From assembly GCA_964566255.1 (NCBI GenBank), contig CAZMID010000001.1, positions 10,799 to 74,798 on the forward strand: 64,000 bases of DNA, given 5' to 3'. Below, piece after piece: positions 36,908 through 55,357 of this stretch; position 1 is the stretch's first letter, and each line of letters starts with the position of its first letter. Origin of the DNA: an uncultured Planctomycetia bacterium (GTDB lineage: Bacteria > Omnitrophota > Gorgyraeia > Gorgyraeales > Gorgyraeaceae). A program made the position numbers and the translations under genes. The notes beneath the pieces were generated by a model, which searched no databases, had not been told where the DNA came from, and saw only the letters and a list, made by a program, of their open reading frames with translations.

Positions 36908-37700
36908 CCAGCCTTGGTTTTTCAGGCAATACTAAACGGCCTTCATCGACCAAATAGATTGCCTTTTCACTATAAGTTATATTTCCTTCTTTTATCATTT
37001 TAACATTTCCATTGGCAACTACCTTTTTTATACATCTTGTATCTGAATCGAAATATACATCAATACAGTCTGCTGAAACATCCCCTTCTGGATCTTTCAG
37101 CTTTACATTATTATAAAAAGTAGCACGATTATTTTTGTAATTTAAATCAAATGGGCCATCGCATGTTATAACTGTATCAGATGCTAGATTCTCTAAATCT
37201 GTCCTTGAAGATCTTATATTAGCTACTACATCTTCTTTGAATCTAGTTTTTTTATCTTCCAAATTACAGATGGCACCTTTTCCATTAACCTGAAAATCCT
37301 CTTTTTTCATATTAATATATTCATTAGTAAATATATTCTTATCTTCTGCATTCCAATATAAAGAATCTGTAGTCAATTTTATTCCGTCTGTAGTTTTAGC
37401 TATTACATTATTCTGAAGGTGTACCAGTTGTATCTTTGGATTAAAATCACCCTCTTTTGCTTTTAACTTAAGACCTCCTTTAACTCCAAATGCTACTGCT
37501 GAAGGTTCTGCTATCTTAACTTTATCTTCTCCTATTTCAGCTGATGAACCATTCAATGTCCATTTCTTATCCCCTCTCGTCTCATACTGTACAAGTGAAA
37601 AACCATCAAGGCTCTGTGTAGATTCAACATGCTGCTCCTCCCCAAAACAAAAAGAACATAAATTTAAAATTAATAAAATTGATATTATTATATTATACAT
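36879..37700 (-). CDS. OstA-like periplasmic protein of the LptA/LptC family.
   Basis: 273 aa with a signal peptide and a beta-jellyroll-like repetitive N/K/D-rich sequence. It sits immediately upstream of lptB, which is the lptC/A-lptB order. Confidence 0.5.
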   Translation of the reverse strand: MYNIIISILLILNLCSFCFGEEQHVESTQSLDGFSLVQYETRGDKKWTLNGSSAEIGEDKVKIAEPSAVAFGVKGGLKLKAKEGDFNPKIQLVHLQNNVIAKTTDGIKLTTDSLYWNAEDKNIFTNEYINMKKEDFQVNGKGAICNLEDKKTRFKEDVVANIRSSRTDLENLASDTVITCDGPFDLNYKNNRATFYNNVKLKDPEGDVSADCIDVYFDSDTRCIKKVVANGNVKMIKEGNITYSEKAIYLVDEGRLVLPEKPRLVVKNEKTKY

Positions 37701-38598
37701 TTACTTTTTTATCCTTGGTCTTCCACCTCTCATGAAACCATACCCACTGCGTAGGAAATCTTTTTATCTGATTTTCTATTGTCTTTGTATATCTTTGAGT
37801 ATTTTTTAATATATCCCTATCTCTATCCTGACTTACAGTTATTTCTATTGGTCGTTCAACCATAATTTCATGACCAAAATTCTTTCTTACAATGAAGCAA
37901 GGAATTATAGGAGAATTTGTCAGGCGATTTAATATCGCTGGACCATTAGGTGTATAAGCAGGCTTCCCAAAAAAATCAACAAACACCCCTGAGACACTCT
38001 CCACATCCTGATCAGGCATTATACCTACAAATTCATTTTTCTTAAGAAGTTCTATTACATCTTTGGCTGAGGCCTCTCTATATAATACCTTCACTCCATT
38101 GCGAGATCTAATCCTATGTAAAAACTTCTCAAAGAGCTCTATCCTGATACGCCTTGCTATCACATTTACAGAATATCCTTTTATTGCAAAATAATGTGCT
38201 AATAATTCCCAGTTTCCTAGATGAGCAGATAATACTATACCACCTTTAGCTTCACGAATAAGACGCTTTATTATCTCAAGATTTTCGCACTTTATATACC
38301 TATCTATATTCTTTTTATTAAATTTAGATAGAGATACCACTTCTACAAAATTCTTTCCTAGGTTTTCAAAGACCTCTCGTACTATTAGAGTTTTTTCTTT
38401 CAAAGACCTGGTACGACCAAATGCTACATCAAGATTAGCTAAAGCTACACATCTCTGTCTTCTAAGGATAAAAAAGAAAAACCTACCAAGATATTTCCCT
38501 AGCCTAAGTCCTATCTTGAGTGGTAAAAGATATATAAAAAAGCTAAGGAACTTAAAAAAGATAATTATGATAATGTGTTTCGACTTCTTCTTAGTCAT
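37693..38598 (-). CDS. Lipid A biosynthesis (Kdo)2-lipid IVA acyltransferase, LpxL/HtrB family.
   Basis: 301 aa with an N-terminal TM helix and an HLGNWE motif (the HX4E-like acyltransferase catalytic dyad region). Confidence 0.75.
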   Translation of the reverse strand: MTKKKSKHIIIIIFFKFLSFFIYLLPLKIGLRLGKYLGRFFFFILRRQRCVALANLDVAFGRTRSLKEKTLIVREVFENLGKNFVEVVSLSKFNKKNIDRYIKCENLEIIKRLIREAKGGIVLSAHLGNWELLAHYFAIKGYSVNVIARRIRIELFEKFLHRIRSRNGVKVLYREASAKDVIELLKKNEFVGIMPDQDVESVSGVFVDFFGKPAYTPNGPAILNRLTNSPIIPCFIVRKNFGHEIMVERPIEITVSQDRDRDILKNTQRYTKTIENQIKRFPTQWVWFHERWKTKDKKVNV

Positions 38599-38649: not shown

Positions 38650-39099
38650 CTAGATAGAATCTACTTTGAGGATGTATCTTTCATCATCTTGCTCTACAAT
38701 TACACTATCTTCATTTATCTCAAGGATCATTGCATCATCAACTATATCTCCGATTGTTACAATATCATTATTTATAATCGCGTAAGGACTATCTTCACTC
38801 CATAAGATTCCATTTAACATAAAGCCTGCCAGACCAGAATCAGACGATATAGATGCACTTCCAGGAAAAAATGGATCTCTCTTCCAGTCTTCTTTAATTG
38901 CAGCTTGTTTTGCCTTAGTCCTTCCAATAGAGATAGGTGCTGAGAAAAAAGATACTGATTTTGTATCTTCTTTAAGTGAGGTTTCTTTTAGTTTACGGAC
39001 TCCTTTGGTTCTACCAATAACCATAAAAATCAAAAATATAACTCCTACAGCAGTTACTGCAAGTTCTATCTTTTGTTTTTTATTCAAGTTTTTCAACAT
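38650..39099 (-). CDS. Hypothetical membrane-anchored protein in the PilP position of the pilMNOP cluster.
   Basis: 149 aa with an N-terminal TM helix. It follows pilO in operon order. Similarity to PilP is not demonstrable by eye. Confidence 0.3.
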   Translation of the reverse strand: MLKNLNKKQKIELAVTAVGVIFLIFMVIGRTKGVRKLKETSLKEDTKSVSFFSAPISIGRTKAKQAAIKEDWKRDPFFPGSASISSDSGLAGFMLNGILWSEDSPYAIINNDIVTIGDIVDDAMILEINEDSVIVEQDDERYILKVDSI

Positions 39100-39103
39100 A
39101 AGG

Positions 39104-39715
39104 TTATTTTCCTAGTATGTAACTAGTTAATTCTATATGCGCTCTTATTCTAGGCGCTATATCATCATCCTTTTCAATGTCTACATCTTCTATAGTAATC
39201 ATAGGGGTATTATTTGCCTTAAGGCTCATCAAAAATTCCCCTAATAGACGATATCTTGCTTCAACTGTTAAACTTAAAGGCATGCATTTACATATATAAT
39301 CTGATATATTAAGTTCTTTACCATCATGGCCTTTATAATTTTCAAGATCCCTTGGCGTTACTGAAATAACACTTACACCAAAACGCCTTGCTTCTTTGTT
39401 TAACTCTTTTATTACATTCGATACTTCCTTTTCAGAAGGAAATACATTATCAAGTAAAGCCATATTTTGTTGTATTTCCATAATGCTATCTTTTAAGTTC
39501 TCGCTGCCGCCAATAAAACTATAGAGAGATTCTACTTCTTCTTTTATCTTTTTATATTCAGCTTCTAACATCCGTACCTTTTTTACTTTAGAAACATACA
39601 CGACTTGAAATAATAGGATTATAACTATAGAAATAACAATAGGTTTAATAGCCTTTTTATCCTTTAAAATAGAAGAAAATTTTATATTTTTATATTTATC
39701 TAATATTTTTAACAT
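39104..39715 (-). CDS. pilO: Type IV pilus assembly protein PilO-like.
   Basis: 203 aa with an N-terminal TM helix, a coiled-coil segment and a periplasmic domain. It is positioned after pilM/N. Confidence 0.5.
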   Translation of the reverse strand: MLKILDKYKNIKFSSILKDKKAIKPIVISIVIILLFQVVYVSKVKKVRMLEAEYKKIKEEVESLYSFIGGSENLKDSIMEIQQNMALLDNVFPSEKEVSNVIKELNKEARRFGVSVISVTPRDLENYKGHDGKELNISDYICKCMPLSLTVEARYRLLGEFLMSLKANNTPMITIEDVDIEKDDDIAPRIRAHIELTSYILGK

Positions 39716-41288
39716 TGCACACTATCTCAAAGTTTAATGAGTTATGTGAATAATCTTTGTTCTTTTTACTATATATCAACTTTACCTTTTCAAATAAAGA
39801 AGATCCTTCAAGATTAGACATAAATTTACTTAATTTTTTTCCTCTTAGAATAACACCTGAAAGTTTTATATGAGGTTCTTTATACTTTATAACTAAATTG
39901 TCTAGCAGTACATATGAAGGAGTAAGATTACTTAATTCTTTCATTATCTCCCCTGAATTTATACTTCCGGAAGAGATTATATTTATAGCATGGGTAAATA
40001 CAATCATCTTATCTTTAACAGCTGTTACATCCTTTATAGTTTCCCAATAGGATTTATAAATCTTTATCTGATTATTCAGACTAATTGCTTTTACTGTTAA
40101 AAATAAATAAGAAACCAAAAGCACACTTCCTACTATAAAAGATACTAGTCTTAAAAGCATCTTTTTTAATATAACTCTCTTCTCGTATTTGAATTTTTCA
40201 GGAATAATATTTATCTCGGACTGATTAATTAAAGCTAAACCAGCTGCACAACTGATTTCAGGGAGGATTTCTAGAATTTCAACTGATATTTCCTTCGATA
40301 GATAATCTTTAATACCTTTTAACTTTGAAGTTCCCCCAGAAAGTATAATCTTTTCGACAGAATCATTAAATCTATGTTCATAGTAATCAAGGGACCTTCT
40401 AATCTGATTTGAAAGTTTTTCCAAAACCGGCCTCATCATAGAAAGAACTCTTATATCTTTAGGAATACCTTTTTCGCATTTTAATTTTTCTGCTTCTTCT
40501 TTTGAAAAATTAATCTTTCCTTTATCCGAGACTAAAACACCCGTCATTGCCTCTGTAATAGTATCTCCGCCTATAGATACATCTCTTGCAAAACATAACT
40601 TTCCATTTTCAATTATAGATATCTTTGTCTTTACGCTTCCTATATCTACGATAGCCACTTTTTCTCCTGAAGGAACTATATTTAGATTAGTTATATAATT
40701 AGTGAGGGCGAACTCTACAGGAAATACATCCTGTATGTTCAATCCAAAACTTTTTAACTCATTTACCTTTTCTTCTATATTATCTTCTCTATATACTATT
40801 GCAATTAAATCTATCTTTTTAGAGTCATTTTCTTCTCTTTCGCCTAAAATACTGAATTTTATTCTTGCTGTATCTATATTAAACTCAATCTCTTCTTTTA
40901 ATTCCCATCTTAACGCCTCTTCTATTTCTTCTTTAGGCATAAAAGGAATACTGGCCCTTCTTATGGCAAGATTATCAATATCAAAACCTAATGATATTTC
41001 CTCCTCAGGCCCTATATTCATATCTTTATTTAAATCTCTAAGGTGGGTTATTTCTTTTACAGTATTATCTTCAATAGAAAAATCCTTACTACTCCTTTTA
41101 ACTCTAACAGCCTTAAAATGTTTCAATCCTAGATCTAAGCCAATAACCTTTCTTTGAGACGCCTTTTTACCTGCAGCAGAAAGAAGTACCTTGGCCTCTT
41201 TTTTAAGTTGTTCTATATAAGGTCCTAGAATCTTCTTTATTTTTTCTTTCAATGCATTGATTGTCTTTAAAAGATTTTGCATATCCAT
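39696..41288 (-). CDS. pilMN: Type IV pilus assembly PilM-PilN fusion protein.
   Basis: 530 aa. The N-terminal actin-like ATPase fold reads VIGLDLGLKHFKAVRV...IVDIGSVKTKISIIENGK...GDTITEA. After about 370 aa there is a TM helix (LLRLVSFIVGSVLLVSYLFL) and a PilN-like periplasmic tail. Confidence 0.65.
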   Translation of the reverse strand: MDMQNLLKTINALKEKIKKILGPYIEQLKKEAKVLLSAAGKKASQRKVIGLDLGLKHFKAVRVKRSSKDFSIEDNTVKEITHLRDLNKDMNIGPEEEISLGFDIDNLAIRRASIPFMPKEEIEEALRWELKEEIEFNIDTARIKFSILGEREENDSKKIDLIAIVYREDNIEEKVNELKSFGLNIQDVFPVEFALTNYITNLNIVPSGEKVAIVDIGSVKTKISIIENGKLCFARDVSIGGDTITEAMTGVLVSDKGKINFSKEEAEKLKCEKGIPKDIRVLSMMRPVLEKLSNQIRRSLDYYEHRFNDSVEKIILSGGTSKLKGIKDYLSKEISVEILEILPEISCAAGLALINQSEINIIPEKFKYEKRVILKKMLLRLVSFIVGSVLLVSYLFLTVKAISLNNQIKIYKSYWETIKDVTAVKDKMIVFTHAINIISSGSINSGEIMKELSNLTPSYVLLDNLVIKYKEPHIKLSGVILRGKKLSKFMSNLEGSSLFEKVKLIYSKKNKDYSHNSLNFEIVCNVKNIR

Positions 41289-41318: not shown

Positions 41319-42539
41319 CTAATAATTTTCATCCCAATCATCTTCTAATCTCACTGTAGCAGGACCTGCTTCCATCCCAGTAGGAATTCCGCCGAGAACG
41401 GATTCGTCATATGTAACGGTTACATTATTTTGAATCTTGTCGCCATCGTATTCATCTGAAATAACACAGCCTGTAACGTCTGCATAATTCTTCAGTTCCA
41501 TTAGAGAAGCAAAGATCATTCCTCTCATTTGACTGTTGTTTTGTAGAGTTATTTTTTTACCTGAAGTAGGGGCGAGAATATTCCCTGCCTCTAAAATGGC
41601 GTCATTCTGAAGAGTGTAATCCTCTCTTGCATAGACCAATGTTCCGCTAGCTACTTCTCCATTGTTCTGCATCTTTACTGATTTTTTTGTTATAATAGTA
41701 ACATTTTCTGTAATAGTACCAAAATTCTTAAGCTCCACATCATCTGTGGCCACAATAGTTCCTGGCCCAACAAGCGTTGCACTGCTCTGAACCGTGACCT
41801 TTTCATAATACTCTGTATCGCCATTCAGATTGTGGGTAGTATCGCCACCTAAATCCAAATCGTCATCGGCTTCACCTTCTGCCGTAGAGATCTGCTCATC
41901 ATACCAGCTAGTGTCAAATTCCGGATATTCTGGTATTGGATCCGGAGGCCCTTCTGCCTCAGTATACTCTCCTCCCCCACTCACATCATCCGCATAGATC
42001 AAACCCCCTGTAACACTGGCATTGTTGGCTACTTCCACATCTTCATTGCAATAGACATCTCCTACAATTGCAACGTTATTGTCTATCAATAAGTCATTAC
42101 TATTTGCAAAGATAACATAGTCAAATACAGCCGATGTCACAACCGCACTCTGTGTAACCTCCCGAGTTACATCATCTACAGTTGCTGTAGAAGTTATCGT
42201 ATAGGTACTCCCATCCCTTGAGACAGCTACAGAATAACTTCCTGTGTCAAAATCCTCCTCAACTGTAGTAGGATCTGCTCTAAAATCTGACTCATTCTTA
42301 AGCTTACCTATAACTCTTTGCAATCCTGCTTCAGCTATATAAAATGCCTGCTGTATCTGCATATTAGCAACGGAAGTACTTAGAGTAGTAGATATTGTAG
42401 ATGATACTGCAATCGACAGGCTAGCTGCTAGTAGCATAACAATAATAACTGCAATCAAAGAAATACCTTTTGAATTTATCTTCATCCTATTAAAAATTCC
42501 TCGGTGAAATATCTGATTGTAAATAAAAATTTTCTCCAT
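41319..42539 (-). CDS. PilX-like pilus assembly protein. The likely true start is the internal ATG at ~42485 (MKINSKG...).
   Basis: It has a hydrophobic N-terminal segment (ISLIAVIIVMLLAASLSIAVSS) and a PilX_N-like QQAFYIAEAGL region. The track start overlaps the upstream gene by 50 nt, which the internal start would resolve. Confidence 0.55.
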   Translation of the reverse strand: MEKIFIYNQIFHRGIFNRMKINSKGISLIAVIIVMLLAASLSIAVSSTISTTLSTSVANMQIQQAFYIAEAGLQRVIGKLKNESDFRADPTTVEEDFDTGSYSVAVSRDGSTYTITSTATVDDVTREVTQSAVVTSAVFDYVIFANSNDLLIDNNVAIVGDVYCNEDVEVANNASVTGGLIYADDVSGGGEYTEAEGPPDPIPEYPEFDTSWYDEQISTAEGEADDDLDLGGDTTHNLNGDTEYYEKVTVQSSATLVGPGTIVATDDVELKNFGTITENVTIITKKSVKMQNNGEVASGTLVYAREDYTLQNDAILEAGNILAPTSGKKITLQNNSQMRGMIFASLMELKNYADVTGCVISDEYDGDKIQNNVTVTYDESVLGGIPTGMEAGPATVRLEDDWDENY

Positions 42540-42990
42540 TCTTCGTAAGGGTTATATTTATTCTTATCCTTCTTATATCAGTTGCACCAGGTGCTACATC
42601 TGGTTCTTCGATTTCATCGCCGTCAGCATCAAAATAAGTAAATGCCAAACTTGAAACATCTTCTGCAAGAGTATTAGTGGTTTCATCCTCTGTCCTATCA
42701 AGATCGGTATCACTTAAGGCATATGTTATATCAACACTATCTATATTCTCAAAACTAAATTCTGAAGCATCAGCTGTAGTAACCTTGGCACGATTTTTAA
42801 CCTCTTTTATCTCTCGTGCCATCCTATTCATAGCAAGTCTACCATCGGACAATAAATCTTGTCTGTTAAACTTAAATGTCCATGCATCAATAGCCCCAAG
42901 TAAAATAGAACCAACAATACCTGTTATAATGCCCATTAGTACTATAACTATTACAAGCTCTACTAATGTGAAACCTTTTGACTTTTTCAT
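42490..42990 (-). CDS. Type IV minor pilin (prepilin-type N-terminal methylation domain).
   Basis: 166 aa. MKKSKGFTLVELVIVIVLMGI matches the G/FTLxE class III signal. Confidence 0.7.
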   Translation of the reverse strand: MKKSKGFTLVELVIVIVLMGIITGIVGSILLGAIDAWTFKFNRQDLLSDGRLAMNRMAREIKEVKNRAKVTTADASEFSFENIDSVDITYALSDTDLDRTEDETTNTLAEDVSSLAFTYFDADGDEIEEPDVAPGATDIRRIRINITLTKNGENFYLQSDISPRNF

Positions 42991-42992
42991 AG

Positions 42993-43373
42993 TTAGTAAT
43001 TCGCCAGAATCGTCTTTAAACTTATATCCCCTATTATTGCATTTGTTATGCGTACTTCTACTTGTTTATAATTTTCCATATCCTCATCATCCTCAATATC
43101 CTCAGGTACTGGATCTACTCTAACCTGCCATGAATAATTACTGAAATTTCCTGTAAAATCCTCGGGGGAATCTCTATTTTCATCATCAACGTCTGAGAAA
43201 TCCAATCTTATAACCCTTTCCATTTCTCCTCTTGCTAAGTTCACTGCAACAGCCACAGCTTCATCTCGAGTCGCATTCGTAAACACCCCTGTAAATACAG
43301 CTATTAAACCTAAAGATATAATACCTATAACTACTATTGATATAATTGTCTCTATTAAAGTAAAACCCTTCAT
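42993..43373 (-). CDS. Type IV minor pilin (PilV-like).
   Basis: 126 aa. MKGFTLIETIISIVVIGIISLGL is a prepilin motif. Confidence 0.7.
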   Translation of the reverse strand: MKGFTLIETIISIVVIGIISLGLIAVFTGVFTNATRDEAVAVAVNLARGEMERVIRLDFSDVDDENRDSPEDFTGNFSNYSWQVRVDPVPEDIEDDEDMENYKQVEVRITNAIIGDISLKTILANY

Positions 43374-43867
43374 TGTATTTTAACTTTTCCTGTTACTGGC
43401 TCTATTCTTACTGTTTTAGAAAACGCCCCATCAGCAGTCTGGAGTGTCAAGACACCTTCACTTGATAAGGCATCACCATTCCCGTCATAAGGTTTACCTA
43501 TAGAATCAAATTCTACTGCATCATTAAAATCAGTAGAAGTTATTACTATATCATTAAATTCTGTCATTTCATCAAATTCAACTTCTAAATCACCTTGAGT
43601 ATGTGGATCTGTTGCTTTAGTACCAGTGTTCACTCTATATCCAAAATAGGATTCATCTCCTGTATCAAATGATATCCCAAACCTCACCTGTTGGGCCATT
43701 GCCATCTGCTGCATAAACCGTAAATCTGAGGCTGCCTTCTGACATGCTGCCTGAAGTCTAACACTCCCTTTGGTAGTTGTAATTTTAGGGATTACAGCCA
43801 CTGCTAAAATCCCTACAATGACCAAGATCATCACAAGTTCAATTAATGTAAATCCATCTCTACGCAT
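43370..43867 (-). CDS. Type IV minor pilin or pseudopilin (GspH/FimT-like).
   Basis: 165 aa. MRRDGFTLIELVMILVIVGILAV is a prepilin motif. Confidence 0.7.
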   Translation of the reverse strand: MRRDGFTLIELVMILVIVGILAVAVIPKITTTKGSVRLQAACQKAASDLRFMQQMAMAQQVRFGISFDTGDESYFGYRVNTGTKATDPHTQGDLEVEFDEMTEFNDIVITSTDFNDAVEFDSIGKPYDGNGDALSSEGVLTLQTADGAFSKTVRIEPVTGKVKIQ

Positions 43868-43886
43868 ACTATACCTATACCATACC

Positions 43887-46295
43887 TTATCTATGTATAA
43901 AAATCAACCTGCGGACAAAAAAGAAACCCAACAATATACTAATAACTATTAATGTTATAATAGCACCCATCTTAAATGAATATGGATCATATATAAATTT
44001 TATTATATGTTTTCCTCTCTCAAGATAAACTGATCGTAAAATATAATCTGTTCTATAAATCTTCTCCCTTCTTCCATCTACGTATACCTTCCACCCAGGA
44101 TAAAATGTATCACCTAAGACTAAAAACTTTTTATCATCTACAGTAGCTTCAATAATAACTTCATTAGGTTTATATTCTAATATATCTACTCTCCCTTTAC
44201 GCTTAATATCATCTAAAGATGCAAAATCTTCCTCTAAGATTATTTCCTTTGAAGGATTAAAATCCTTACTCTTTAGTCTTTTAAGGATTTCTTCTTCATC
44301 TTTAATTAAGACTGCCTTATCCACTAAAAACACTCTTGGTAGAACATTCTTATTCTCATAAATATTGATATTTTTATTTCTTTTAACTAATCTATAGCCC
44401 TTAGCACTAAAATCCTTTATAGAAGCTATATATTTTACATTTAATAGATTTAGAAGATTTGTTTCATCAGGTGAAGCTTGTTGCATTATTATCTTTATTA
44501 TATCTTCATTTCTTTTTGGAAAAAATTGCTCATATCCATATATATCATAAATTTGAAAACCTACCCCCCTATCAGAAACTAATCTTTCCTTAAGAATGCG
44601 AATAGATTCGAAATAATCTCTCTCAGGAAGAAATCTATTCTCTTTCAAGGTTACAGGAGAAGTAAATGTTCTAAATAGAGTTTTATCCTCTTTTAAAAAT
44701 TCAATAGTCCTACCTGGTTTTAGATATTCATCTATATCCATATTTTGATAAACAATCCTATTTGCTGTCAATAGATCCATAAAAGATATAAATAGTAATA
44801 TTGGAATTATTAAGTTCGATCTTATCTTTTTCTTTAAAGGTAAGAACATTAATACTGATAAATACATAAAAACATAAAGACTTCTCTTTATATTATGCAT
44901 ACCTACATATATAAAATCTCTAACATCACTAGCTTTATCTATAAAACTGGGTACTATAGCTAAAATCTTTCTATGTAAAAAATCGCTAGTTGCAGTAAAA
45001 TTCAAGTTAATCATTAAATAAAAAAATGAACTTATAACTCCAAATATCAATATACCTTTTAAGAATCTTCTAAGATTCTCACTTGATGAAATATTCTCTC
45101 TATAATATTCAAGTCCCATTCCAGCTAGAATCGCTAATGAAAATGCTGCCATAAAAAAGAATTTCACTGGATATCTTAATAAGCCAAATCCAGGGATAAA
45201 GTTATATAAAAAATAATATATTGGTGTATATCTTCCAAGGGAAAGCAGTAAGCTTACTGCCAGAAGATAAAAAAATGTCTTTCTTTTTTCTGTTACATCA
45301 AACTTTAAAGATAATACAACACATATCACAGTAAATATACCCATATAAAAAGTTAAGATCAAACTCTGTCTTATCCAATACTCCTTATATAGATAATCAG
45401 AGTCACTTAAATAAGGTACGAATAAATCTAAAAATGCATATGGAGGAAATGACCATATGGATACCTCATTAAAATGCATTGTAGCCCTAGGAGACTCTTT
45501 TATTATTTCCAAAAAAGGCAAGATCTGAAAACATGAAAGGCCTATAAAAACTAATAAAGCCAAAGCCAGTGGTATCAGACATCTTATGTAGGAGGTGTTT
45601 AAGTTTAAGCGGCCCCTGCGATTTACTTTTTCAAAGTATGCCCCTTTAGCAGACTTCTGTCGAAAACCCAAAAAAACCAAAATAAAACATGTAAGATAAA
45701 AAACTGCGGGACTCCCACCCAAGAACATCAGTGTTAGGAATATTCCCGTAAGCATAGAATTCTTAAGCCACTTCTTTCCTAAAGACCTCTCATAAAATAA
45801 AATTACAATCGGGAGCCATGCAACAGAAGTAAGTTGGGGCACTAAATTTATTGCAGAAATGATATATCCGCCAAACATAAAAATTAAACCTGAAAAAAAT
45901 GATCCATATCTAGAATAATTCCACTCTCTCATCAATAGATATGTAAAAACACCTGCCAAAAAAATATGTAATATTATGAAATAATTGAATGCTTGTGGAT
46001 AAGAAAATAGCATGTAGATAATGCTTAGGGGATAAAATACACTGTTTTGAATTTCTGCAATGTGTGAGGTTCCGCAGTGAAGGTAGGGATCCCATAAAGG
46101 AATAGATCCAGCACGAAATTGGATTGCACTGAATTCTCTTAGGGGATAATAACTTCTTATAAGATCTCTATGTACAAAGATTTTATTTGCAAATAATACA
46201 TCAGAAAAAAAGATACATATAAGGGCTATAAAAACAAAAATGGGAATGGTATCTTTCATCCATTCCCATTTAGAATTTATAGGTATTTCTTTCAA
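43887..46295 (-). CDS. YfhO-family polytopic membrane protein (a putative glycosyltransferase-like protein) embedded in the pilin gene cluster.
   Basis: 802 aa with more than 12 predicted TM helices. The N-terminal region (FSDVLFANKIFVHRDLIRSYYPLREF...WDPYLHCGTSHIAE) and the overall size and architecture are typical of bacterial YfhO proteins. Confidence 0.55.
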   Translation of the reverse strand: MKEIPINSKWEWMKDTIPIFVFIALICIFFSDVLFANKIFVHRDLIRSYYPLREFSAIQFRAGSIPLWDPYLHCGTSHIAEIQNSVFYPLSIIYMLFSYPQAFNYFIILHIFLAGVFTYLLMREWNYSRYGSFFSGLIFMFGGYIISAINLVPQLTSVAWLPIVILFYERSLGKKWLKNSMLTGIFLTLMFLGGSPAVFYLTCFILVFLGFRQKSAKGAYFEKVNRRGRLNLNTSYIRCLIPLALALLVFIGLSCFQILPFLEIIKESPRATMHFNEVSIWSFPPYAFLDLFVPYLSDSDYLYKEYWIRQSLILTFYMGIFTVICVVLSLKFDVTEKRKTFFYLLAVSLLLSLGRYTPIYYFLYNFIPGFGLLRYPVKFFFMAAFSLAILAGMGLEYYRENISSSENLRRFLKGILIFGVISSFFYLMINLNFTATSDFLHRKILAIVPSFIDKASDVRDFIYVGMHNIKRSLYVFMYLSVLMFLPLKKKIRSNLIIPILLFISFMDLLTANRIVYQNMDIDEYLKPGRTIEFLKEDKTLFRTFTSPVTLKENRFLPERDYFESIRILKERLVSDRGVGFQIYDIYGYEQFFPKRNEDIIKIIMQQASPDETNLLNLLNVKYIASIKDFSAKGYRLVKRNKNINIYENKNVLPRVFLVDKAVLIKDEEEILKRLKSKDFNPSKEIILEEDFASLDDIKRKGRVDILEYKPNEVIIEATVDDKKFLVLGDTFYPGWKVYVDGRREKIYRTDYILRSVYLERGKHIIKFIYDPYSFKMGAIITLIVISILLGFFFVRRLIFIHR

Positions 46296-46316: not shown

Positions 46317-46718
46317 TTACCAGCTAGAAGTATCTATTGTACCATCAGAATAAGCCCCTGCCACACCAGTACTTGATATATACCACCATCCACTTGCAGA
46401 TGTATCAGTTCCACCAGGTGCAGCTGTTACAACCCCAATAGCTGTAGCATCATTTAATTTATTTGTTGGGGTACGACTATCTGCAAAATTAGCAGTTGTT
46501 AATGCAGAAGGGAACGAAGCTGCGCCAGAAGTAGCGTTCTTTGCATATTCAATAGCAATTACTGAGCGAATCGCACCCAGGCCAGCCTTGCCAGCAGAGG
46601 TCTTTGCGCTTGTAGTTATATCTACGAATTTAGGAATAGCTATTGCTGCCAATATACCAAGGATAACAATTACCATTACAAGTTCAATAAGAGTGAAACC
46701 TTTTTTATTCCTAATCAT
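46317..46718 (-). CDS. pilA: Type IV major pilin.
   Basis: 133 aa. MIRNKKGFTLIELVMVIVILGILAAIAIPKF is a canonical type IVa pilin leader and N-terminal helix. Confidence 0.8.
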   Translation of the reverse strand: MIRNKKGFTLIELVMVIVILGILAAIAIPKFVDITTSAKTSAGKAGLGAIRSVIAIEYAKNATSGAASFPSALTTANFADSRTPTNKLNDATAIGVVTAAPGGTDTSASGWWYISSTGVAGAYSDGTIDTSSW

Positions 46719-47077
46719 TACCTCCTCCTTTCAACCTTGCCAGTTTTACTATTATATATGAATCTACGACCATATGGATCTATTGGATAACCTTCCTTAT
46801 CCTGTACCTGCTTTTCTAAGTACCTTCTGCCATATAAAGTACTTTCTTTTACTGTTCGGCACTTCTTATTAAGCTCTCTAATATCTTTTGGATAAGAACC
46901 TTCTAGTATCATATACAATTCTAATGAATATTTCAGATTTGTCAATTGATTTTCCAAAGCAACCTCTCTTGCCTCACTCAAATTCCTTACAAGATAGCTT
47001 GAAAAAATCCCTACAATAAGGCCTACTATTAAAATAATAAAGATTAATTCTAATATGCCTCTACCATACTGCATCAT
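46718..47077 (-). CDS. Small pilin-like protein with a degenerate prepilin motif.
   Basis: 119 aa. The N-terminus is RGILELIFIILIVGLIVGIF. The Glu is at +3 rather than +5 relative to the Gly. It lies between pilC and pilA. Confidence 0.3.
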   Translation of the reverse strand: MMQYGRGILELIFIILIVGLIVGIFSSYLVRNLSEAREVALENQLTNLKYSLELYMILEGSYPKDIRELNKKCRTVKESTLYGRRYLEKQVQDKEGYPIDPYGRRFIYNSKTGKVERRR

Positions 47078-48295
47078 TTAAGTCCTAAATAATGACATCA
47101 GATTCCACATAGGCAAGAATATTGCTAATGCAAGAATCAAGACTAGAATCCCTATAATAAATATTAAAATCGGCTCTATAAGAACTGTAAGGTTCCTGAC
47201 AGTATAATCTACTTGAGAATCATAATAGTCCGCTACCTTTAATAATAAGTCGTCTATTTTACCTGTCTCCTCTCCTATCTTAACCATCTGCATTACAATA
47301 CTAGGAAAAAGTCCACTTGCCTTCATTGGTTCTACCATGCCCTTGCCTTCATTGACAGCTTCTATAATATTTTCAATTGAATTCGAAACAATCTTATTGC
47401 CAATGCCTCCCTTAACAATACCAAGTGCATTCAATATAGGTATACCACTTGAAGAAAGCACAGAAGTCATTCTGCTAAACCTTGACATTGAAATCTTTAA
47501 AGTAAGTTCTCCAAAAATAGGAACTTTTAATTTAAAATTATCCCACAAGTATCTACCTTTTTTAGTGTTGATAAAATTCTTGAAAACTATAGCTAATCCA
47601 AATATTGCAAGAATTATAAGATACCAATAATGTACCAATATAAAATTTAAACCTAAAAGCATCCTTGTAGGAAGTGGGAGTTGGGCTTCAAATCTTGCAA
47701 AGAGAGCACTAAACTTAGGTATTATAAACATAACTGCCATAGGAAACGCCATGGAAATAGTCAATACAACCAATATCGGATATCGTGTTGCCTGCTTTAT
47801 CTTCATATTTACTTCCTGTTCGTGCTCAAGAAAATTCGCAAGCCTATCTAATACACTATCCAAGATACCGGCTGTCTCTCCTGCGCGTATCATATTTATA
47901 TAAACATCAGAGAATACTTTAGGAAATTTTGAAAGGGTTTCTGATAGGTTCTTTCCTGCTTCTATATCGCGGGCTATCTCATTAATAATACCTTTAAAAT
48001 ACGTATTACTAGTCTGTTCTTGTATAGATTCTAAACTAACAAGGATTGAAACCCCTGAACGCTGCAGTGTCATGAGCTGTCTTGTAAAAACAATCAGCTC
48101 AGCCAGTTTTACACTGTGAAAGATTTTCTCTAAAAGATTAATTTTATTTAATGTAAGATGATGTTCTTTGATGAGAATGGGTGCATAGCCCATTTTTTTG
48201 AAGTGAGTAGCGACTGTCTCTTTGGATTCTGATTCTATGGTGCCTGTAGAAGCCCGTCCGTACTTATCACGGATCTTATAGCGGAAATTAGGCAT
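47078..48295 (-). CDS. pilC: Type IV pilus inner-membrane platform protein (GspF/PilC family).
   Basis: 405 aa with two T2SS-F domains and three TM segments. Confidence 0.9.
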   Translation of the reverse strand: MPNFRYKIRDKYGRASTGTIESESKETVATHFKKMGYAPILIKEHHLTLNKINLLEKIFHSVKLAELIVFTRQLMTLQRSGVSILVSLESIQEQTSNTYFKGIINEIARDIEAGKNLSETLSKFPKVFSDVYINMIRAGETAGILDSVLDRLANFLEHEQEVNMKIKQATRYPILVVLTISMAFPMAVMFIIPKFSALFARFEAQLPLPTRMLLGLNFILVHYWYLIILAIFGLAIVFKNFINTKKGRYLWDNFKLKVPIFGELTLKISMSRFSRMTSVLSSSGIPILNALGIVKGGIGNKIVSNSIENIIEAVNEGKGMVEPMKASGLFPSIVMQMVKIGEETGKIDDLLLKVADYYDSQVDYTVRNLTVLIEPILIFIIGILVLILALAIFLPMWNLMSLFRT

Positions 48296-48297
48296 TA

Positions 48298-49971
48298 TTA
48301 CTCTTTTGTTATCTTAATTATCTCATCTATCGTGGTAATACCTTTTGAAACCTTCTCCAGTCCATCGTCATTCAATGTCTTCATGTCCATCTCAAGAGCC
48401 TTCTTCTTTATTACGTCACTCGAGGCCCTAGCAATAATCATTTTCCTGATTCCTTCATTGATTATTAGAAGCTCAAATACCCCGACTCTACCTTTATATC
48501 CTGTATCCTTACAATTCTTACAGCCTTTACCTCTAAATAATTTTTTAATATCTTTACCTGCAGATTTTAAGATCTCATCTGATGGCTTATAAGATTCCTT
48601 ACATTTTTCACAGACTTTTCTAACAAGTCTCTGGGCCAAGATCCCTATAACTGAACTTGAAATCAAAAATGGCTCCACACCCATATCCAAAAGCCTTGTC
48701 AAGGCTGTCGCAGCATCATTTGTATGTAAAGTACTAAAAACTAGATGTCCTGTTAGTGCTGCCTGAATAGAAATCTCGACTGTTTCCTTGTCTCTGATTT
48801 CTCCTACCATTATTATATCTGGATCTTGTCTTAAAATAGACTTAAGTCCTGTTGCAAATGTCAGGCCTGCCTTTGGATTTATTTGAGACTGTCTGATTCT
48901 ACCTAGATGATATTCAACAGGATCTTCTACAGTAATAATATTTTGCTCTTTTGAATCGATTGTAGAAAGAGCTGAATAAAGAGTGGTAGTTTTTCCGCTT
49001 CCAGTAGGTCCTGTAACAAGTATTATTCCATGAGGGTGCTTTATCAAAGATTCAAAATCTTTTTGCATCTTTTTAGAAAAACCTAAAATATCAAGGTCTA
49101 ATAAGACTGCTCCTTTATCTAAAATCCTTATTACTATATTTTCGCCATATATCGTAGGAAATGTAGAAACCCTCAAATCGATATCTCTATTTTCTACTTT
49201 TATATTAAACCTTCCATCTTGTGGTTTTCTTTTTTCTGCAATATCAATCTTAGAAAGAACCTTTATCCTGGATAAAAGTGCTGCTTCAAGATGCTTGGGT
49301 GGTGAAAACATCTCGTATAAAACACCATCTATTCTGAACCTAACCTTTAACACCCCTTCTTCTGGTTCTATATGTATATCACTGGCTCTTTCTTTTACTG
49401 CCTGCATAATTATTAGATTTACAAGTTTTATAACAGGTGCCTCATCTGCTATCTCAGCAAGTTTTTTAGTGTCTAACTCTACAGGTGCGATTTCTTTCTT
49501 TTTATCCTTACTGATATCTCTTATTACATCTTCAACTGAACCCTGTACGCCATAATACTGATCTATTGCACTTAATATAGCACTTTCACTTGCCAATACC
49601 GACTCTATCTCACATTTAGATTTACGACTCAAATCATCTATAGCCATAATATCTTTTGGATCTGCCATTGCTACAGTAACAGTATCTCCTATTTTAAAAA
49701 CAGGAATTGCTTTATGTTTACGTGCTACACTTTCTGATATGAGTTTTAATATATTGGCATCCACTAAGTAATTACTTAGATCGATATAAGGGACTTCTAA
49801 TGCCTCAGACATTGCCTGGGCATAATCATCTTCTGTAACTATGCCTGTTTTTACCAATAATTTACCAATAGGTATGCCTTTTTTCTTAGAATCTTCCTTG
49901 GCCTTTTTAATATGCTCTTCTGTAATAAAAGAACGTTCTAATAAAATTTGTTCTACAGTCTTTTTTGTCAT
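48298..49971 (-). CDS. pilB: Type IV pilus assembly ATPase (GspE/PilB family).
   Basis: 557 aa with Walker A GPTGSGKTTTLYS, Asp and His boxes and a tetracysteine motif CEKCKESY...CKNCKDTGYKGR. Confidence 0.9.
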   Translation of the reverse strand: MTKKTVEQILLERSFITEEHIKKAKEDSKKKGIPIGKLLVKTGIVTEDDYAQAMSEALEVPYIDLSNYLVDANILKLISESVARKHKAIPVFKIGDTVTVAMADPKDIMAIDDLSRKSKCEIESVLASESAILSAIDQYYGVQGSVEDVIRDISKDKKKEIAPVELDTKKLAEIADEAPVIKLVNLIIMQAVKERASDIHIEPEEGVLKVRFRIDGVLYEMFSPPKHLEAALLSRIKVLSKIDIAEKRKPQDGRFNIKVENRDIDLRVSTFPTIYGENIVIRILDKGAVLLDLDILGFSKKMQKDFESLIKHPHGIILVTGPTGSGKTTTLYSALSTIDSKEQNIITVEDPVEYHLGRIRQSQINPKAGLTFATGLKSILRQDPDIIMVGEIRDKETVEISIQAALTGHLVFSTLHTNDAATALTRLLDMGVEPFLISSSVIGILAQRLVRKVCEKCKESYKPSDEILKSAGKDIKKLFRGKGCKNCKDTGYKGRVGVFELLIINEGIRKMIIARASSDVIKKKALEMDMKTLNDDGLEKVSKGITTIDEIIKITKE

Positions 49972-49973
49972 AT

Positions 49974-50342
49974 CTATCCTAATAACTCCTTTATCTTTTG
50001 TACTAGTTCCTGAGGTTCAAATGGTTTTGTTATATGAGCATCTGAACCTACCTGTTTACTTAATTCTTCATCTTTTTCTTGTGCACGCGCAGTAAACATA
50101 ATAATAGGTATTGACTTATAATCCTTATTAGCCTTAAGAGTCCTACAAACCTCAAACCCATCCATCTTAGGAAGCATCAGATCTAAAATTATAAGATCTG
50201 GCTTGATAGATTTTGCCTTTTTTAAGGCGTCTTCTCCATCTCCGGCCTCAGTCACATCATAGTTTAATGCCTCAAGGCGGAATTTCAACATTTTTCTTAA
50301 ATCTTCTTCATCATCTACTAAAAGTATTCTCTTCTTATCCAT
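49974..50342 (-). CDS. Stand-alone CheY-like response regulator receiver protein (PilH/PilG-like position).
   Basis: 122 aa with a DD acidic pocket, the phospho-acceptor D in LIILDLMLP and the K in the ITKPF context. Confidence 0.85.
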   Translation of the reverse strand: MDKKRILLVDDEEDLRKMLKFRLEALNYDVTEAGDGEDALKKAKSIKPDLIILDLMLPKMDGFEVCRTLKANKDYKSIPIIMFTARAQEKDEELSKQVGSDAHITKPFEPQELVQKIKELLG

Positions 50343-50354
50343 AACTTACCCCTT

Positions 50355-50921
50355 TTAAGTTAAATATTCTGATATGGCTTTTTCCCATAAACCTTGAGAT
50401 TTAAGTATAATCTCTATAAGTTCTCTTACTGCTCCCTTCCCACCTTGCTTTTTAGTGATATAATGAGCAGATTTTTTTACTTCTTCTACTGCATTAGGGG
50501 GTGCAACTGAAAAACCAACCCTTTTTATTATAGGTAGATCTAAAAGGTCATCTCCCATAAAACAAACTTCATCGTCTTTTACTTTGAATTTATTAAGTAC
50601 GCTTTTATAAATCTTTAGCTTTTTATGATCTGAATAGACTGCTGAAACTTTCATCTCGGCCGCCCTATGCTTAACAATTCTTGTTTTCTTTGCAGTAATA
50701 ATTACTGATTTTATACCTATCCTATTAAGAAGGATCATACCAAAACCATCATTTACATTAAAACATTTTAATTCATCCCCAAAATTGTCGTAAATTATGC
50801 GTCCATCTGTAAGAACACCGTCTACATCTAATATTAATAACTTTACTTTTTGTGCGCGCTCTTCAATCATACAAGCCCTGCCTTTAAAAGGTCCTGGACA
50901 TCTACTATACCTATGGCACAA
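50355..50921 (-). CDS. kdsC: 3-deoxy-D-manno-octulosonate 8-phosphate phosphatase. The likely start is the internal ATG at ~50870 (MIEERAQ...).
   Basis: HAD YrbI-type motifs LLILDVDGVLTDGRI and GDDLLDLP. The track start overlaps kdsD by 55 nt, and the internal start would give a 4-nt overlap. Confidence 0.85.
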   Translation of the reverse strand: MCHRYSRCPGPFKGRACMIEERAQKVKLLILDVDGVLTDGRIIYDNFGDELKCFNVNDGFGMILLNRIGIKSVIITAKKTRIVKHRAAEMKVSAVYSDHKKLKIYKSVLNKFKVKDDEVCFMGDDLLDLPIIKRVGFSVAPPNAVEEVKKSAHYITKKQGGKGAVRELIEIILKSQGLWEKAISEYLT

Positions 50922-51826
50922 CCTTTATCATCTACTATAGGAATCTCATCTATCTTATTTTCTCGTAAAATCCTTAGTGCCTCAACTGCAAGACATCCTT
51001 TTTTAAGTGTTTTGGGTCTTTTTGTCATTACATCTTTAACTTTTCTTCTTGAAAGATCAGGGTCTTCTTCTAAATGCCTTCTTAAATCTCCATCTGTAAA
51101 AACGCCTTTTAATTTCTTTTTTCCATCTATAACTGTAGCACTTCCTGCCCTAGCAGCAGTAATTGCTAAAAGGACGTCTTTTACCTTACAATTTTCTTTT
51201 ACAAGAGGATTTGCATTGCCTTTTCTCATTATATCTTCTACCTTTAAAAGAAGCTGTTTTCCAAGATTCCCACCTGGATGAAGAAATGCAAAATCACTTC
51301 TTTTGAACCCTCTTTTATCCATCAATGCAGCACACAGGGCATCCCCCATCGCAAGCATTGTAGTCGTACTTGCCATAGGTGCAAGCTGCAATGGACAGGC
51401 CTCTTTTTTTATTGAAACATCGAGCGTTGCATCACTATTTTTGGCAAGTGTTGAAGAGGTATTTCCTGTTATTGCAATCAGTTTTGAGCCAATCTTTTTT
51501 ATATGAGGGATTAATCTTATGATTTCTTCTGTTTCGCCACTATTTGAGATGGCAATTAAAATATCTTCTTTTCTTACTCTACCCAAGTCACCATGAATTG
51601 CCTCTACAGCATGAAGCCATAAACTAGGCGTACCAGTAGATGAAAGAGTTGCAGAGATCTTTTGACCTACGATGCCAGCCTTACCCATACCTGTTACAAC
51701 CACTCTTCCTTTAGACGAAAAAATAAGTCTAACTGCCTTCTCAAAATCTTTATTTATTCGTGAAGATAGCTGTTTTATGGATTCGGATTCTATTTTTAAA
51801 ACTTGTTTTGCGCGTTTTTTTAGCAT
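50867..51826 (-). CDS. kdsD: Arabinose-5-phosphate isomerase (SIS domain plus a CBS pair).
   Basis: 319 aa with SIS motifs (VVVTGMGKAGIVGQKISATLSSTGTPS) and C-terminal CBS domains. Confidence 0.9.
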   Translation of the reverse strand: MLKKRAKQVLKIESESIKQLSSRINKDFEKAVRLIFSSKGRVVVTGMGKAGIVGQKISATLSSTGTPSLWLHAVEAIHGDLGRVRKEDILIAISNSGETEEIIRLIPHIKKIGSKLIAITGNTSSTLAKNSDATLDVSIKKEACPLQLAPMASTTTMLAMGDALCAALMDKRGFKRSDFAFLHPGGNLGKQLLLKVEDIMRKGNANPLVKENCKVKDVLLAITAARAGSATVIDGKKKLKGVFTDGDLRRHLEEDPDLSRRKVKDVMTKRPKTLKKGCLAVEALRILRENKIDEIPIVDDKGCAIGIVDVQDLLKAGLV

Positions 51827-52641
51827 TTTGTAATTTTATCTATTTTTTTGATGTCTTTTAATAGTTTTTTAAGTGCATCCAGCGTAATCATATTAGGACC
51901 ATCACAAGGTGCCTTATCCGGATCTTTATGAACCTCTAAAAATAAACCGTCACAACCCATTGCTACAGCTGCACGCGAAAGACCAGGTACGAATTTACGT
52001 TCTCCGCCGGAAGATTCACCTTCGCCTCCAGGTAACTGTACACTATGCGTTGCATCATAAATAACAGGGTAATCAAACTTACTTAATATTTCCAAAGATC
52101 TCATATCACTAACAAGATTATTGTAACCAAACATCGTGCCGCGCTCTGTAATGATAATATTTTTATTCCCGGTCGATTCTATCTTCTCTATGATATTACC
52201 AATATCCCATGGTGCCAAGAACTGACCTTTTTTAATATTTACTATTTTCTTTGTCTTTGCAACTTCTACAATAAAATCAGTCTGCCTACATAAAAATGCG
52301 GGTATTTGAATAATATCTAAAACCTTTTTTGCCTTATCTAGTTCAGTCTTACAATGAACATCACTTAATATAGGAATATCTAAATCCTTTTTGATCTTTG
52401 CTAAAATCTCTAAACCTTCATCAATCCCTGGCCCCCTGAATGAATTCATGTTAGAACGATTTGCCTTATCATAACTTGTTTTAAATATAAAACCTATATC
52501 TTCTTTTTTACAAATCTCTCTTATTAACTTTGCATGCTCTAAAGAATGTGAGCTACTTTCTATTACACAAGGCCCTGCAATTAAAATAATAGGATTTTTA
52601 CTGCCTAGTTTTATATTTTTTATTTTTATCTCTTTAGTCAT
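51820..52641 (-). CDS. kdsA: 2-dehydro-3-deoxyphosphooctonate aldolase (Kdo-8-P synthase).
   Basis: 273 aa with ILIAGPCVIES and a DAHP-synthase-I-family fold, including a C...H...E...D metal site (CRQTD, HSVQLPGG). Confidence 0.95.
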   Translation of the reverse strand: MTKEIKIKNIKLGSKNPIILIAGPCVIESSSHSLEHAKLIREICKKEDIGFIFKTSYDKANRSNMNSFRGPGIDEGLEILAKIKKDLDIPILSDVHCKTELDKAKKVLDIIQIPAFLCRQTDFIVEVAKTKKIVNIKKGQFLAPWDIGNIIEKIESTGNKNIIITERGTMFGYNNLVSDMRSLEILSKFDYPVIYDATHSVQLPGGEGESSGGERKFVPGLSRAAVAMGCDGLFLEVHKDPDKAPCDGPNMITLDALKKLLKDIKKIDKITKC

Positions 52642-52649
52642 CTTATCCT

Positions 52650-53399
52650 TTATAAGAAACTAAGTTGTTCTGAATTCTTCATTACTTCGACTGCCTTCTT
52701 TAAATCCTCTGGTGTATCTATACCAATTGTATCAAATTTTGTTTCTAATACTTTTATTTTATATCCATTCTCAATTACTCTCAGTTGTTCTAACTTTTCA
52801 TTCTTCTCTAGCTTTGTCTGAGGAAGACTCCTAAATGTCAAAAGAAAATCCTTAGTATAAGCATAAAGTCCTATATGTTTATAACAACTTGTCACTCGAG
52901 TCTCATGCTTTAATGCATATGGAATTGGTGCTCTAGAAAAATATAATGCAAAACCATATCTATCTCTAACTACCTTTACTACATTCGGATCTACGATTTC
53001 ATATAGATCTTTAATTTTATGACAAAGCGTTGTCATGTAAATATTCTTATCTTTTAATATAGGAAAAACAACATCGTCTATCATACTGGGATGGATAAAT
53101 GGCTCATCTGCCTGGATATTTACAATAACCTTTGCTTCAATTGAATTGGCTACCTCAGTAAGTCTATCTGAACCACTCTTATGGGCTTGGGATGTATATA
53201 CAGACTTTGCACCAAAACCTCTTGCCGTCCTATATATACGTTTATCATCAGTAGCTATTATAAGGTCTTCTATTGATTTTGACTTTTTGGCGTTTTCCCA
53301 AGTGTGTTGAATAACCGGTTTTCCACAGAGATCTCCTAAAAGCTTTCCTTCGAATCTAACTGAACCATATCGCGCTGGGATTATTCCTACAGCATTCAT
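52650..53399 (-). CDS. kdsB: 3-deoxy-manno-octulosonate cytidylyltransferase (CMP-Kdo synthetase).
   Basis: 249 aa with an N-terminal VGIIPARYGSVRFEGKLL motif. Confidence 0.9.
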   Translation of the reverse strand: MNAVGIIPARYGSVRFEGKLLGDLCGKPVIQHTWENAKKSKSIEDLIIATDDKRIYRTARGFGAKSVYTSQAHKSGSDRLTEVANSIEAKVIVNIQADEPFIHPSMIDDVVFPILKDKNIYMTTLCHKIKDLYEIVDPNVVKVVRDRYGFALYFSRAPIPYALKHETRVTSCYKHIGLYAYTKDFLLTFRSLPQTKLEKNEKLEQLRVIENGYKIKVLETKFDTIGIDTPEDLKKAVEVMKNSEQLSFL

Positions 53400-55318: not shown

Positions 55319-55357
55319 ATATTACCCCTTTTGGGTATTTGGAGCATTTTAGCATTA

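Follow-up and report, generated by a model that had tools for sequence, protein, structure and literature searches.

A YfhO-family glycosyltransferase gene in a type IV pilus operon of Omnitrophota: a candidate pilin-glycosylating enzyme

To our knowledge, descriptions of type IV pilin glycosylation come almost entirely from a small number of proteobacterial pathogens and involve two enzyme types, the Wzy_C oligosaccharyltransferases and TfpW. YfhO proteins (Pfam family PF09586) were first tied to the glycosylation of teichoic acids, and the YfhO of Bacillus subtilis is paired with CsbB, a glycosyltransferase (GT) of family GT2 (PMC5836110). Here we describe a 64,000-nucleotide stretch of DNA (64 kb; hereafter the window) from an uncultured Omnitrophota bacterium (contig CAZMID010000001.1), in which a YfhO-family membrane protein of 802 amino acids (aa) is encoded inside a type IV pilus operon, between the candidate major pilin gene, pilA, and a minor pilin gene. 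Most likely, this protein works in the periplasm as an O-glycosyltransferase and decorates the major pilin with sugar from a lipid-phosphate donor; the pairing of pilin and YfhO genes probably represents a widespread route of type IV pilus glycosylation that has yet to be described.

The described enzymes closest in family are PgtC2 of Streptococcus pyogenes and S. pneumoniae and PgfM1 of S. mutans, which have been shown genetically to O-glycosylate Ser/Thr-rich extracytoplasmic regions of proteins; they work with a GT2 (GtrB or PgfS) that makes a sugar linked to undecaprenyl phosphate (Und-P) (PMC12041528). The window protein is likewise a PF09586 member of the GT-C type, and relatives of its gene adjoin a GT2 gene with PgfS/DPMS-like matches, which recalls the pairing with PgfS. 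In contrast, PgtC2 and PgfM1 occur in monoderm Firmicutes, have no linkage to pilin genes and act on the disordered tails of membrane proteins and on wall-anchored adhesins, whereas the window gene is part of a diderm type IV pilus operon, with no GT2 of this type in the window. The founding PF09586 members, B. subtilis YfhO and Listeria Lmo1079, are teichoic acid N-acetylglucosamine transferases; B. subtilis YfhO and the window protein both have many transmembrane (TM) helices, the last two of which are separated by a large extracytoplasmic loop (PMC5836110), but the teichoic acid polymer that serves as their acceptor would not be expected in a diderm Omnitrophota bacterium.

By the position of its gene, the window protein instead resembles TfpW, the arabinosyltransferase for group IV pilins of Pseudomonas aeruginosa. 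TfpW is a polytopic GT-C enzyme encoded directly downstream of pilA; it uses a polyprenyl-phosphate monosaccharide donor, acts on Ser/Thr of the major pilin, and has 646 aa, 11 predicted TM helices, a C-terminal tetratricopeptide repeat (TPR) domain and Emb-like motifs (bioRxiv 10.1101/2020.04.19.049825). The window gene also lies immediately 3′ of the major pilin gene (21 bp), as do its counterparts in 37-42 of 71 related loci. However, the window protein differs from TfpW as described, with ~14 TM helices, a beta-rich domain before the final one and a PF09586 match, and no TPR family was among its Pfam matches at E≤0.01. Periplasmic pilin glycosylation is also the work of TfpO/PilO, PglL, PglS and TfpM of the Wzy_C family, and tfpO, like the window gene, stands directly after pilA. 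Wzy_C-type enzymes transfer pre-assembled oligosaccharides, linked to undecaprenyl diphosphate, en bloc. We ruled out a TfpO/PglL type for the window protein: no Wzy_C domain (PF04932) was found in it, and the same search readily detects Wzy_C in proteins of two other loci (L046 and L115; loci from other genomes and from metagenome contigs are cited by such numbers where they must be told apart).

An initial annotation of the locus had suggested a dedicated enzyme for pilin O-glycosylation or pilus modification and added that such a role would be novel for a YfhO protein. Our literature searches combining YfhO with pilin, pilA, type IV pili or Omnitrophota found no paper that joins them. Protein-glycosylating YfhO enzymes as such are not new, because PgtC2 and PgfM1 have been shown in streptococci, and TfpW is a precedent on the pilin side; the apparent novelty is that, in diderm bacteria, a YfhO enzyme is combined with a type IV pilin. 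This would place a third enzyme family in the gene position used for pilin glycosylation and is a first indication of YfhO-type protein glycosylation in diderms. Judged from sequence comparisons, the annotation thus seems partly supported, its interpretation agreeing well with comparative genomics and its novelty having been somewhat overstated.

The YfhO reading frame was found exactly where it had been annotated, and its features are as follows.

43887..46295, minus strand: YfhO-family GT-C glycosyltransferase, 802 aa (PF09586, AlphaFold model, Foldseek, hydropathy)
45990..46190, minus strand: first periplasmic loop (residues 36-102), the most conserved stretch among 92 sequences
46164-46166, minus strand: codon of the putative catalytic Asp44, in the first periplasmic loop
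43971..44762, minus strand: periplasmic beta-rich domain (residues ~512-775), from model secondary structure and conservation

This open reading frame (ORF) starts with TTG, and an identical 802-aa protein is already in a public sequence collection; because there is an in-frame ATG at codon 13, an alternative start, the length could be 790 aa. In a Pfam scan, PF09586 scored 56.6 bits against a gathering cut-off of 28.5, in two matched stretches, and no other Pfam family matched; the family model aligns well only in part, the best stretch being the C-terminal 81 residues. A PgfM2 model reached only 23 bits, over the C-terminal 69 residues. All 120 homologues listed carry either a PF09586 domain or the NCBI name 'YfhO family protein', and the family is large, with 34,698 cluster representatives at E≤1e-30.

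To examine the fold, we used an AlphaFold (AF2) model built from an alignment of the 802-aa protein with 23 homologues (predicted local distance difference test score, pLDDT, 86.5; predicted template modelling score, pTM, 0.88). When this model was compared with the PDB by Foldseek, the first 28 ranks were all GT-C glycosyltransferases, among them AftD, eukaryotic STT3, PglB, AglB, AftA, EmbA/B/C and Pmt1/2/4, all of which use polyprenyl-linked donors; by this measure the window protein has a GT-C fold. A profile of the YfhO alignment matched nothing meaningful among PDB sequences, and no solved YfhO structure was found by sequence. The model, together with hydropathy and charge, predicts ~14 TM helices with both termini in the cytoplasm. 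TM1 spans residues 17-35 and is followed by the first periplasmic loop (36-102); a K/R-rich disordered cytoplasmic loop (210-239) lies five TM helices further on; and a beta-rich periplasmic domain of 264 residues (512-775) precedes the final TM helix (776-794) and a K/R-rich cytoplasmic tail. This layout matches the description of B. subtilis YfhO, in which a large extracytoplasmic domain separates the last two of ~13 TM helices (PMC5836110).

We scored residue conservation over 92 YfhO relatives from the genome loci. D44, in the motif R-D-L, is 96% conserved and periplasmic by topology, so that the protein has the conserved acidic residue in the first extracytoplasmic loop that characterizes GT-C enzymes; from the position of the equivalent residue in those enzymes, D44 may be the catalytic base. 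The same loop contains P66 (95%), W68 (97%), G75 (96%) and P89 (97%). Elsewhere E263, R270, R374, D507, R542, YPGW732-735, D740 and H763 are 95-100% conserved; the invariant YPGW motif, D740 and H763 lie in the beta-rich domain, which is presumed to be an acceptor-binding module. Because D44 and the other polar residues are conserved to this degree, the enzyme looks catalytically intact, and the protein is very probably an active YfhO-type GT-C enzyme.

The conservation also bears on whether the protein, having lost or never had transferase activity, could instead assist pilin insertion or pilus assembly as a chaperone or accessory protein of the membrane. There is a precedent in TfpY, a non-enzymatic pilin accessory protein encoded after pilA (PMC11841053), and the absence of a visible donor pathway in the window would fit such a role. 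But the periplasmic polar residues of GT-C type are kept at 95-100% across distant relatives, including those not linked to pilins, relatives have GT2 partners, and a polytopic enzyme fold of 800 aa is unlike the TfpY type with its three TM segments. Because active-site-type residues are conserved and GT2 partners occur, we regard a non-catalytic role as very unlikely.

The annotated placement of the gene within a type IV pilus operon also stands. On the same strand, a 133-aa prepilin ORF ends 21 bp upstream of YfhO and a 165-aa ORF with a prepilin motif starts 19 bp downstream. A terminator parts pilA from accessory genes in Pseudomonas (PMC11841053); in contrast, a terminator scan of the window found no terminator-like hairpin between pilA, YfhO and the minor pilin gene, and in a scan of the operon the terminator and promoter matches were no more numerous than in shuffled sequences. 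We think it rather likely that YfhO is co-transcribed with the pilus genes. Within the GspG-like ORF that precedes pilA lies the best sigma-70-like match of the operon region (46918-46945, minus strand; TTGACA-16-TAGAAT, 11/12). Such matches are overall no commoner than in shuffles; this one might serve pilA and yfhO as a promoter of their own.

To see whether the linkage of pilin and YfhO genes extends to relatives, one genome per GTDB species was scanned (580 relatives) and the best 80 of the 580 loci were kept; these were annotated by phmmer, with the window pilus proteins as queries, and by a regular expression for the prepilin motif. Among the 71 loci with at least 600 bp of upstream sequence, a prepilin ORF lay directly upstream of YfhO on the same strand in 42, and within 300 bp in 37. 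In these pilus-rich loci, 36 of 85 YfhO ORFs had a prepilin neighbour, compared with 12 of 373 (3%) other ORFs of at least 300 aa (odds ratio 22, Fisher p 5e-20). The linkage is kept at 26-60% YfhO protein identity over about nine phyla, as given by the labels of metagenome-assembled genomes, which may be imprecise: Omnitrophota, Elusimicrobiota, anammox Planctomycetota, Thermodesulfobacteriota/Deltaproteobacteria, Nitrospinota, Nitrospirota, Margulisiibacteriota, Binatia and Chloroflexota. It is synteny, not experiment, that joins pilA and yfhO, and the two could in principle be neighbours by gene-order hitch-hiking with no functional link; however, given the enrichment over other large ORFs of the same loci and its retention across such divergent proteins, a fortuitous adjacency is scarcely credible.

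In a neighbour-joining tree, the pilin-linked enzymes fall into two clades, a large multi-phylum one, to which the window protein belongs, and another from Binatia and Chloroflexota, and YfhO enzymes without pilus context form separate branches. pilA still adjoins YfhO where pilB/pilMNO are inverted (L040, L045, L050), and the pair occurs with no minor pilin genes nearby in ten loci (L025, L033, L036, L037, L060, L064, L066, L068, L074, L077). Because YfhO follows pilA in many phyla without nearby minor pilin genes, pilA is the invariant partner. This also speaks against the idea that YfhO glycosylates the minor pilins or a tip complex encoded just downstream and not the major pilin. That idea draws on the Omnitrophota arrangement, in which the gene lies between pilA and four pilin-like genes, and on four loci (L007, L008, L001, L015) in which a YfhO-GT2 pair stands immediately before the minor pilin genes; we consider it distinctly improbable.

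The linkage can be approached from the pilin side as well. We scanned metagenome contigs with the pilin alignment; because most matches share only the pilin N-terminus, this sample amounts to a broad set of environmental pilin loci. YfhO lies next to the pilin in 8 of the 67 loci with enough downstream sequence, and both loci whose pilin resembles the window pilin over its full length are among those eight.

Two further arrangements were seen in the related loci. Eight of them (L019, L047, L022, L042, L043, L038, L012, L016) have a tandem array of two or three YfhO paralogues after the pilin gene or genes, and corresponding positions of the L019 and L047 arrays are orthologous in the tree; such tandem paralogues with orthologous positions suggest sequential or alternative sugar additions. 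In a closely related pair of loci, one with the label Nitrospira, an ORF resembling signal peptidase I by its sequence motifs lies between pilA and YfhO (L022, 814-1506; L036, 1945-2583).

The presumed acceptor is the pilin encoded directly upstream.

46317..46718, minus strand: candidate major pilin PilA, 133 aa (PF07963, TIGR02532)

It has a canonical prepilin leader and N-terminal motif (MIRNKKGFTLIELV; KKGFTLIELV), is free of Cys, has Ser/Thr-rich loops and a Ser/Thr-rich tail ending in ...DTSSW, and contains 23% Ser plus Thr overall and 29% after residue 55. The family is well conserved in Omnitrophota, with more than 120 homologue clusters at 63-84% identity. An AF2 model from an alignment of database homologues (pLDDT 89.6) shows a helix at residues 10-63 followed by loops and three short strands; in a Foldseek search with it, only the N-terminal helix matched a gonococcal pilin (E 1.5). 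The model and alignment place the nearly invariant T75, T104, T106, S124, T127, T130 and S131 in the loops and the C-terminal tail. Pilin loops and the C-terminal tail are the glycan-bearing regions in Neisseria and Pseudomonas pilins.

By comparing YfhO-linked with unlinked pilins, suggestive differences emerge, none of them corrected for relatedness: the Ser/Thr fraction is 0.25 in linked and 0.22 in unlinked pilins (p 0.002), 70% and 34%, respectively, are free of Cys, and 72% and 27% end in W, F or Y (p 5e-7). The terminal aromatic residue might be a recognition or packing feature. The pilins beside YfhO in loci L001-L160 are also short, with a median of ~122 mature residues, and make up a recognizable class.

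In 11 related loci a GT2 gene, a possible donor synthase, directly follows YfhO: the Omnitrophota loci L001, L007, L008, L009 and L015 (proteins of ~230 aa), the Margulis/Saganbacteria loci L038 and L043, and L040, L016, L029 (where the GT2 is fused to a methyltransferase) and L076. The best matches of these GT2 proteins are a Pyrococcus dolichyl-phosphate (Dol-P)-mannose synthase (5mlz, E 1e-11), a Dol-P-hexose transferase, AglJ, PpgS, PgfS and ArnC, all family matches lying below equivalog cut-offs; by these matches they look like polyprenyl-phosphate-sugar synthases. Their association with YfhO is the GT-A plus GT-C pairing of CsbB-YfhO (PMC5836110) and PgfS-PgfM1 (PMC12041528).

The position directly after pilA is occupied by other enzymes in other loci. 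These include a Wzy_C plus TPR protein (L115, 5488-7425), a TMEM260-like GT-C plus TPR protein (L085, 2576-4618), a TPR-bearing membrane protein (L090, 3625-5160) within an Omnitrophota-style order of GspG-like ORF, pilA, this gene and minor pilin, and two GT2 genes with two polytopic proteins (L098, 5556-10207). Some YfhO loci also carry PMT_2 GT-C enzymes, or Wzy_C plus GT4, and in L046 the Wzy_C gene lies between pilA and YfhO. Because different such enzymes fill it, the position after pilA would seem to accommodate pilin-modifying transferases in general, as it does in the Pseudomonas pilin groups.

The GT-C fold, the pilin linkage, the GT2 genes of relatives and the shared gene position all favour the dedicated pilin glycosylation that the initial annotation put forward; beyond these observations, we infer the acceptor (the pilin), the sugar and its Und-P-monosaccharide donor, the O-linkage to Ser/Thr and the biological role. 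In the mechanism we envisage, a cytoplasmic GT2 would load a monosaccharide onto undecaprenyl phosphate and the lipid-linked sugar would be flipped to the periplasmic face. There YfhO, using D44 and the beta-rich domain, would transfer the sugar to Ser/Thr hydroxyls of the major pilin (46317-46718) while this is still anchored in the membrane and unpolymerized, and the outcome would be a pilus fibre coated with sugars. Plausible roles would be masking of the pilus against phages or altered adhesion, as for Pseudomonas TfpO/TfpW. We lean towards the major pilin as the acceptor, with less assurance than for the enzymatic activity itself.

Several points count against glycosylation of the major pilin. 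The catalytic role proposed for D44 comes from analogy with other GT-C enzymes. Pilins are commonly rich in Ser/Thr, and linked and unlinked ones differ little in this respect, in a comparison made without phylogenetic correction. In 29 of the 71 related loci no pilin lies upstream, from which it follows that the wider YfhO family has other acceptors. Neither tblastn nor Pfam scans, which covered nearly all ORFs of at least 110 aa, detected a polyprenyl-phosphate-sugar-synthase GT2 or a GtrA-like flippase in the 64-kb window, yielding only LPS (lipopolysaccharide)-core GT9/GT4 and housekeeping genes; the partner GT2 expected in a YfhO operon was thus not found within the window, and the closest relatives (L002, L003, L004, L006) likewise have none adjacent. 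Finally, a long block of LPS genes surrounds the operon (36155-38598 and 50355-63895), and from the window locus alone an LPS acceptor is conceivable. The downstream part of this block encodes LptB, an LptC/LptA-like ORF and LpxL, and the upstream part KdsC/KdsD/KdsA-like ORFs, KdsB, three GT9 proteins, a GT4-GT9 fusion and a polysaccharide deacetylase.

These points bear on an alternative in which YfhO is an active enzyme whose acceptor is not specifically the major pilin, because it serves general periplasmic O-glycosylation of many Ser/Thr-rich envelope proteins, in the manner of streptococcal PgtC2, or modifies LPS or another envelope glycan, and co-expression with pili is a regulatory convenience only. 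Known YfhO enzymes act on teichoic acids (PMC5836110) or on several proteins (PMC12041528); Kds, GT9, LpxL and Lpt genes flank the operon; the unlinked relatives are numerous; and no local donor-synthase gene ties YfhO to a pilus-specific pathway. However, LPS genes flank the pilus operon only in Omnitrophota, and it is pilA that is the neighbour conserved across phyla, in immediate same-strand adjacency in 37 loci; in addition, the gene position is common to TfpO-like and TfpW-like enzyme types. We therefore judge this alternative unlikely, though it deserves more weight than a role confined to the minor pilins, and we retain glycosylation of the major pilin as the preferred explanation.

A wider joint reading can be offered tentatively. 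YfhO GT-C enzymes may be major, ancient and unrecognized pilin modifiers of environmental diderms, present at about one in eight of the pilin loci sampled; they may add monosaccharides singly from Und-P-sugars, with tandem paralogues building multi-sugar decorations; and their acceptors may be a distinct class of short, Cys-free pilins with an aromatic terminus. In host-attached nanobacteria such as Omnitrophota, the sugar coat could tune attachment or protect against phages. If true, these proposals would add a third enzyme family for pilin glycosylation over a much wider range of mostly uncultivated phyla, including Omnitrophota, Nitrospinota, Nitrospirota, Desulfobacterota, Binatia, Margulisbacteria and others, and would carry YfhO-type protein O-glycosylation beyond Firmicutes into diderm bacteria. 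They would also give a functional hypothesis for part of a very large uncharacterized family, and a pilA-yfhO-GT2 cassette (as in L007) would be testable by heterologous reconstitution and possibly useful for glycoengineering.

The initial annotation described the YfhO gene as inserted among the pilin genes. The position between pilins holds, but 'inserted' does not mean a recent insertion, because Omnitrophota relatives with a YfhO of only 55-60% identity have the same gene order. A recent horizontal insertion had been considered in view of the local composition (GC content dips to 0.29 and AT skew flips at 44-46 kb of the window) and was rejected on the grounds of this conserved gene order; the composition would fit a membrane protein rich in Phe, Ile, Leu and Tyr.

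The remaining genes of the pilus cluster are given here in order of transcription; pilA and YfhO stand, in that order, between the GspG-like ORF and the first of three pilin-like ORFs.

49974..50342, minus strand: single-domain response-regulator receiver, 122 aa, first cluster gene (ORF)
48298..49971, minus strand: PilB-like assembly ATPase, 557 aa (Walker A GPTGSGKT; syntenic homologues in related loci)
47078..48295, minus strand: PilC-like platform protein, 405 aa (sequence and synteny)
46718..47077, minus strand: GspG-like ORF, 119 aa, with a degenerate prepilin motif (T2SSG domain, PF08334, 31 bits; TIGR01710, 43.7 bits, below cut-off)
43370..43867, minus strand: minor pilin, 165 aa, loosely GspH/ComGD-like (PF07963; TIGR01708, 39.7 bits, below cut-off)
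42993..43373, minus strand: minor pilin, 126 aa (PF07963, TIGR02532)
42490..42990, minus strand: minor pilin, 166 aa (PF07963, TIGR02532)
41319..42539, minus strand: PilX/GspK-position protein, 406 aa, with an N-terminal hydrophobic helix (weak GspK match, E 0.0018; syntenic in relatives)
39696..41288, minus strand: PilM-PilN fusion, 530 aa (PF11104, 119 bits; PF05137, 41 bits)
39104..39715, minus strand: PilO, 203 aa (PF04350, 30.2 bits)
38650..39099, minus strand: last cluster gene, 149 aa, in the PilP position (sub-threshold Pfam matches only; kept after PilO in relatives)

The window ORFs that were scanned showed no sign of a secretin, PilT or a prepilin peptidase. The 165-aa minor pilin had been called GspH-like; it has the prepilin motif and GspH is its best NCBIfam match, but the label is only loosely supported because that match reaches 39.7 bits against an 80-bit cut-off and covers the N-terminal 66 residues only. 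With the PilC-like protein as query, phmmer found a gene beside PilB at the syntenic position in 34 related loci.

The GspG-like ORF, which adjoins pilA upstream, has the motif GRG-ILELIF in place of G-FTLIE and is kept at that position in the Omnitrophota loci L001-L004 and L015 and also in L041, L052, L090, L109, L112, L147 and L154. One to four paralogous receiver copies precede pilB in Omnitrophota relatives; L002-L004, L007 and L008 have three or four single-domain response regulators in tandem there, and the window has one. Far from the pilus genes, a giant ORF of 5034 aa (4179-19283, minus strand), most of which has no match, carries scattered Pfam domains resembling sugar-phosphate enzymes only: Glucosamine_iso at residues ~4200-4448, CofD at ~2949-3084, and weak ROK and PGI matches.

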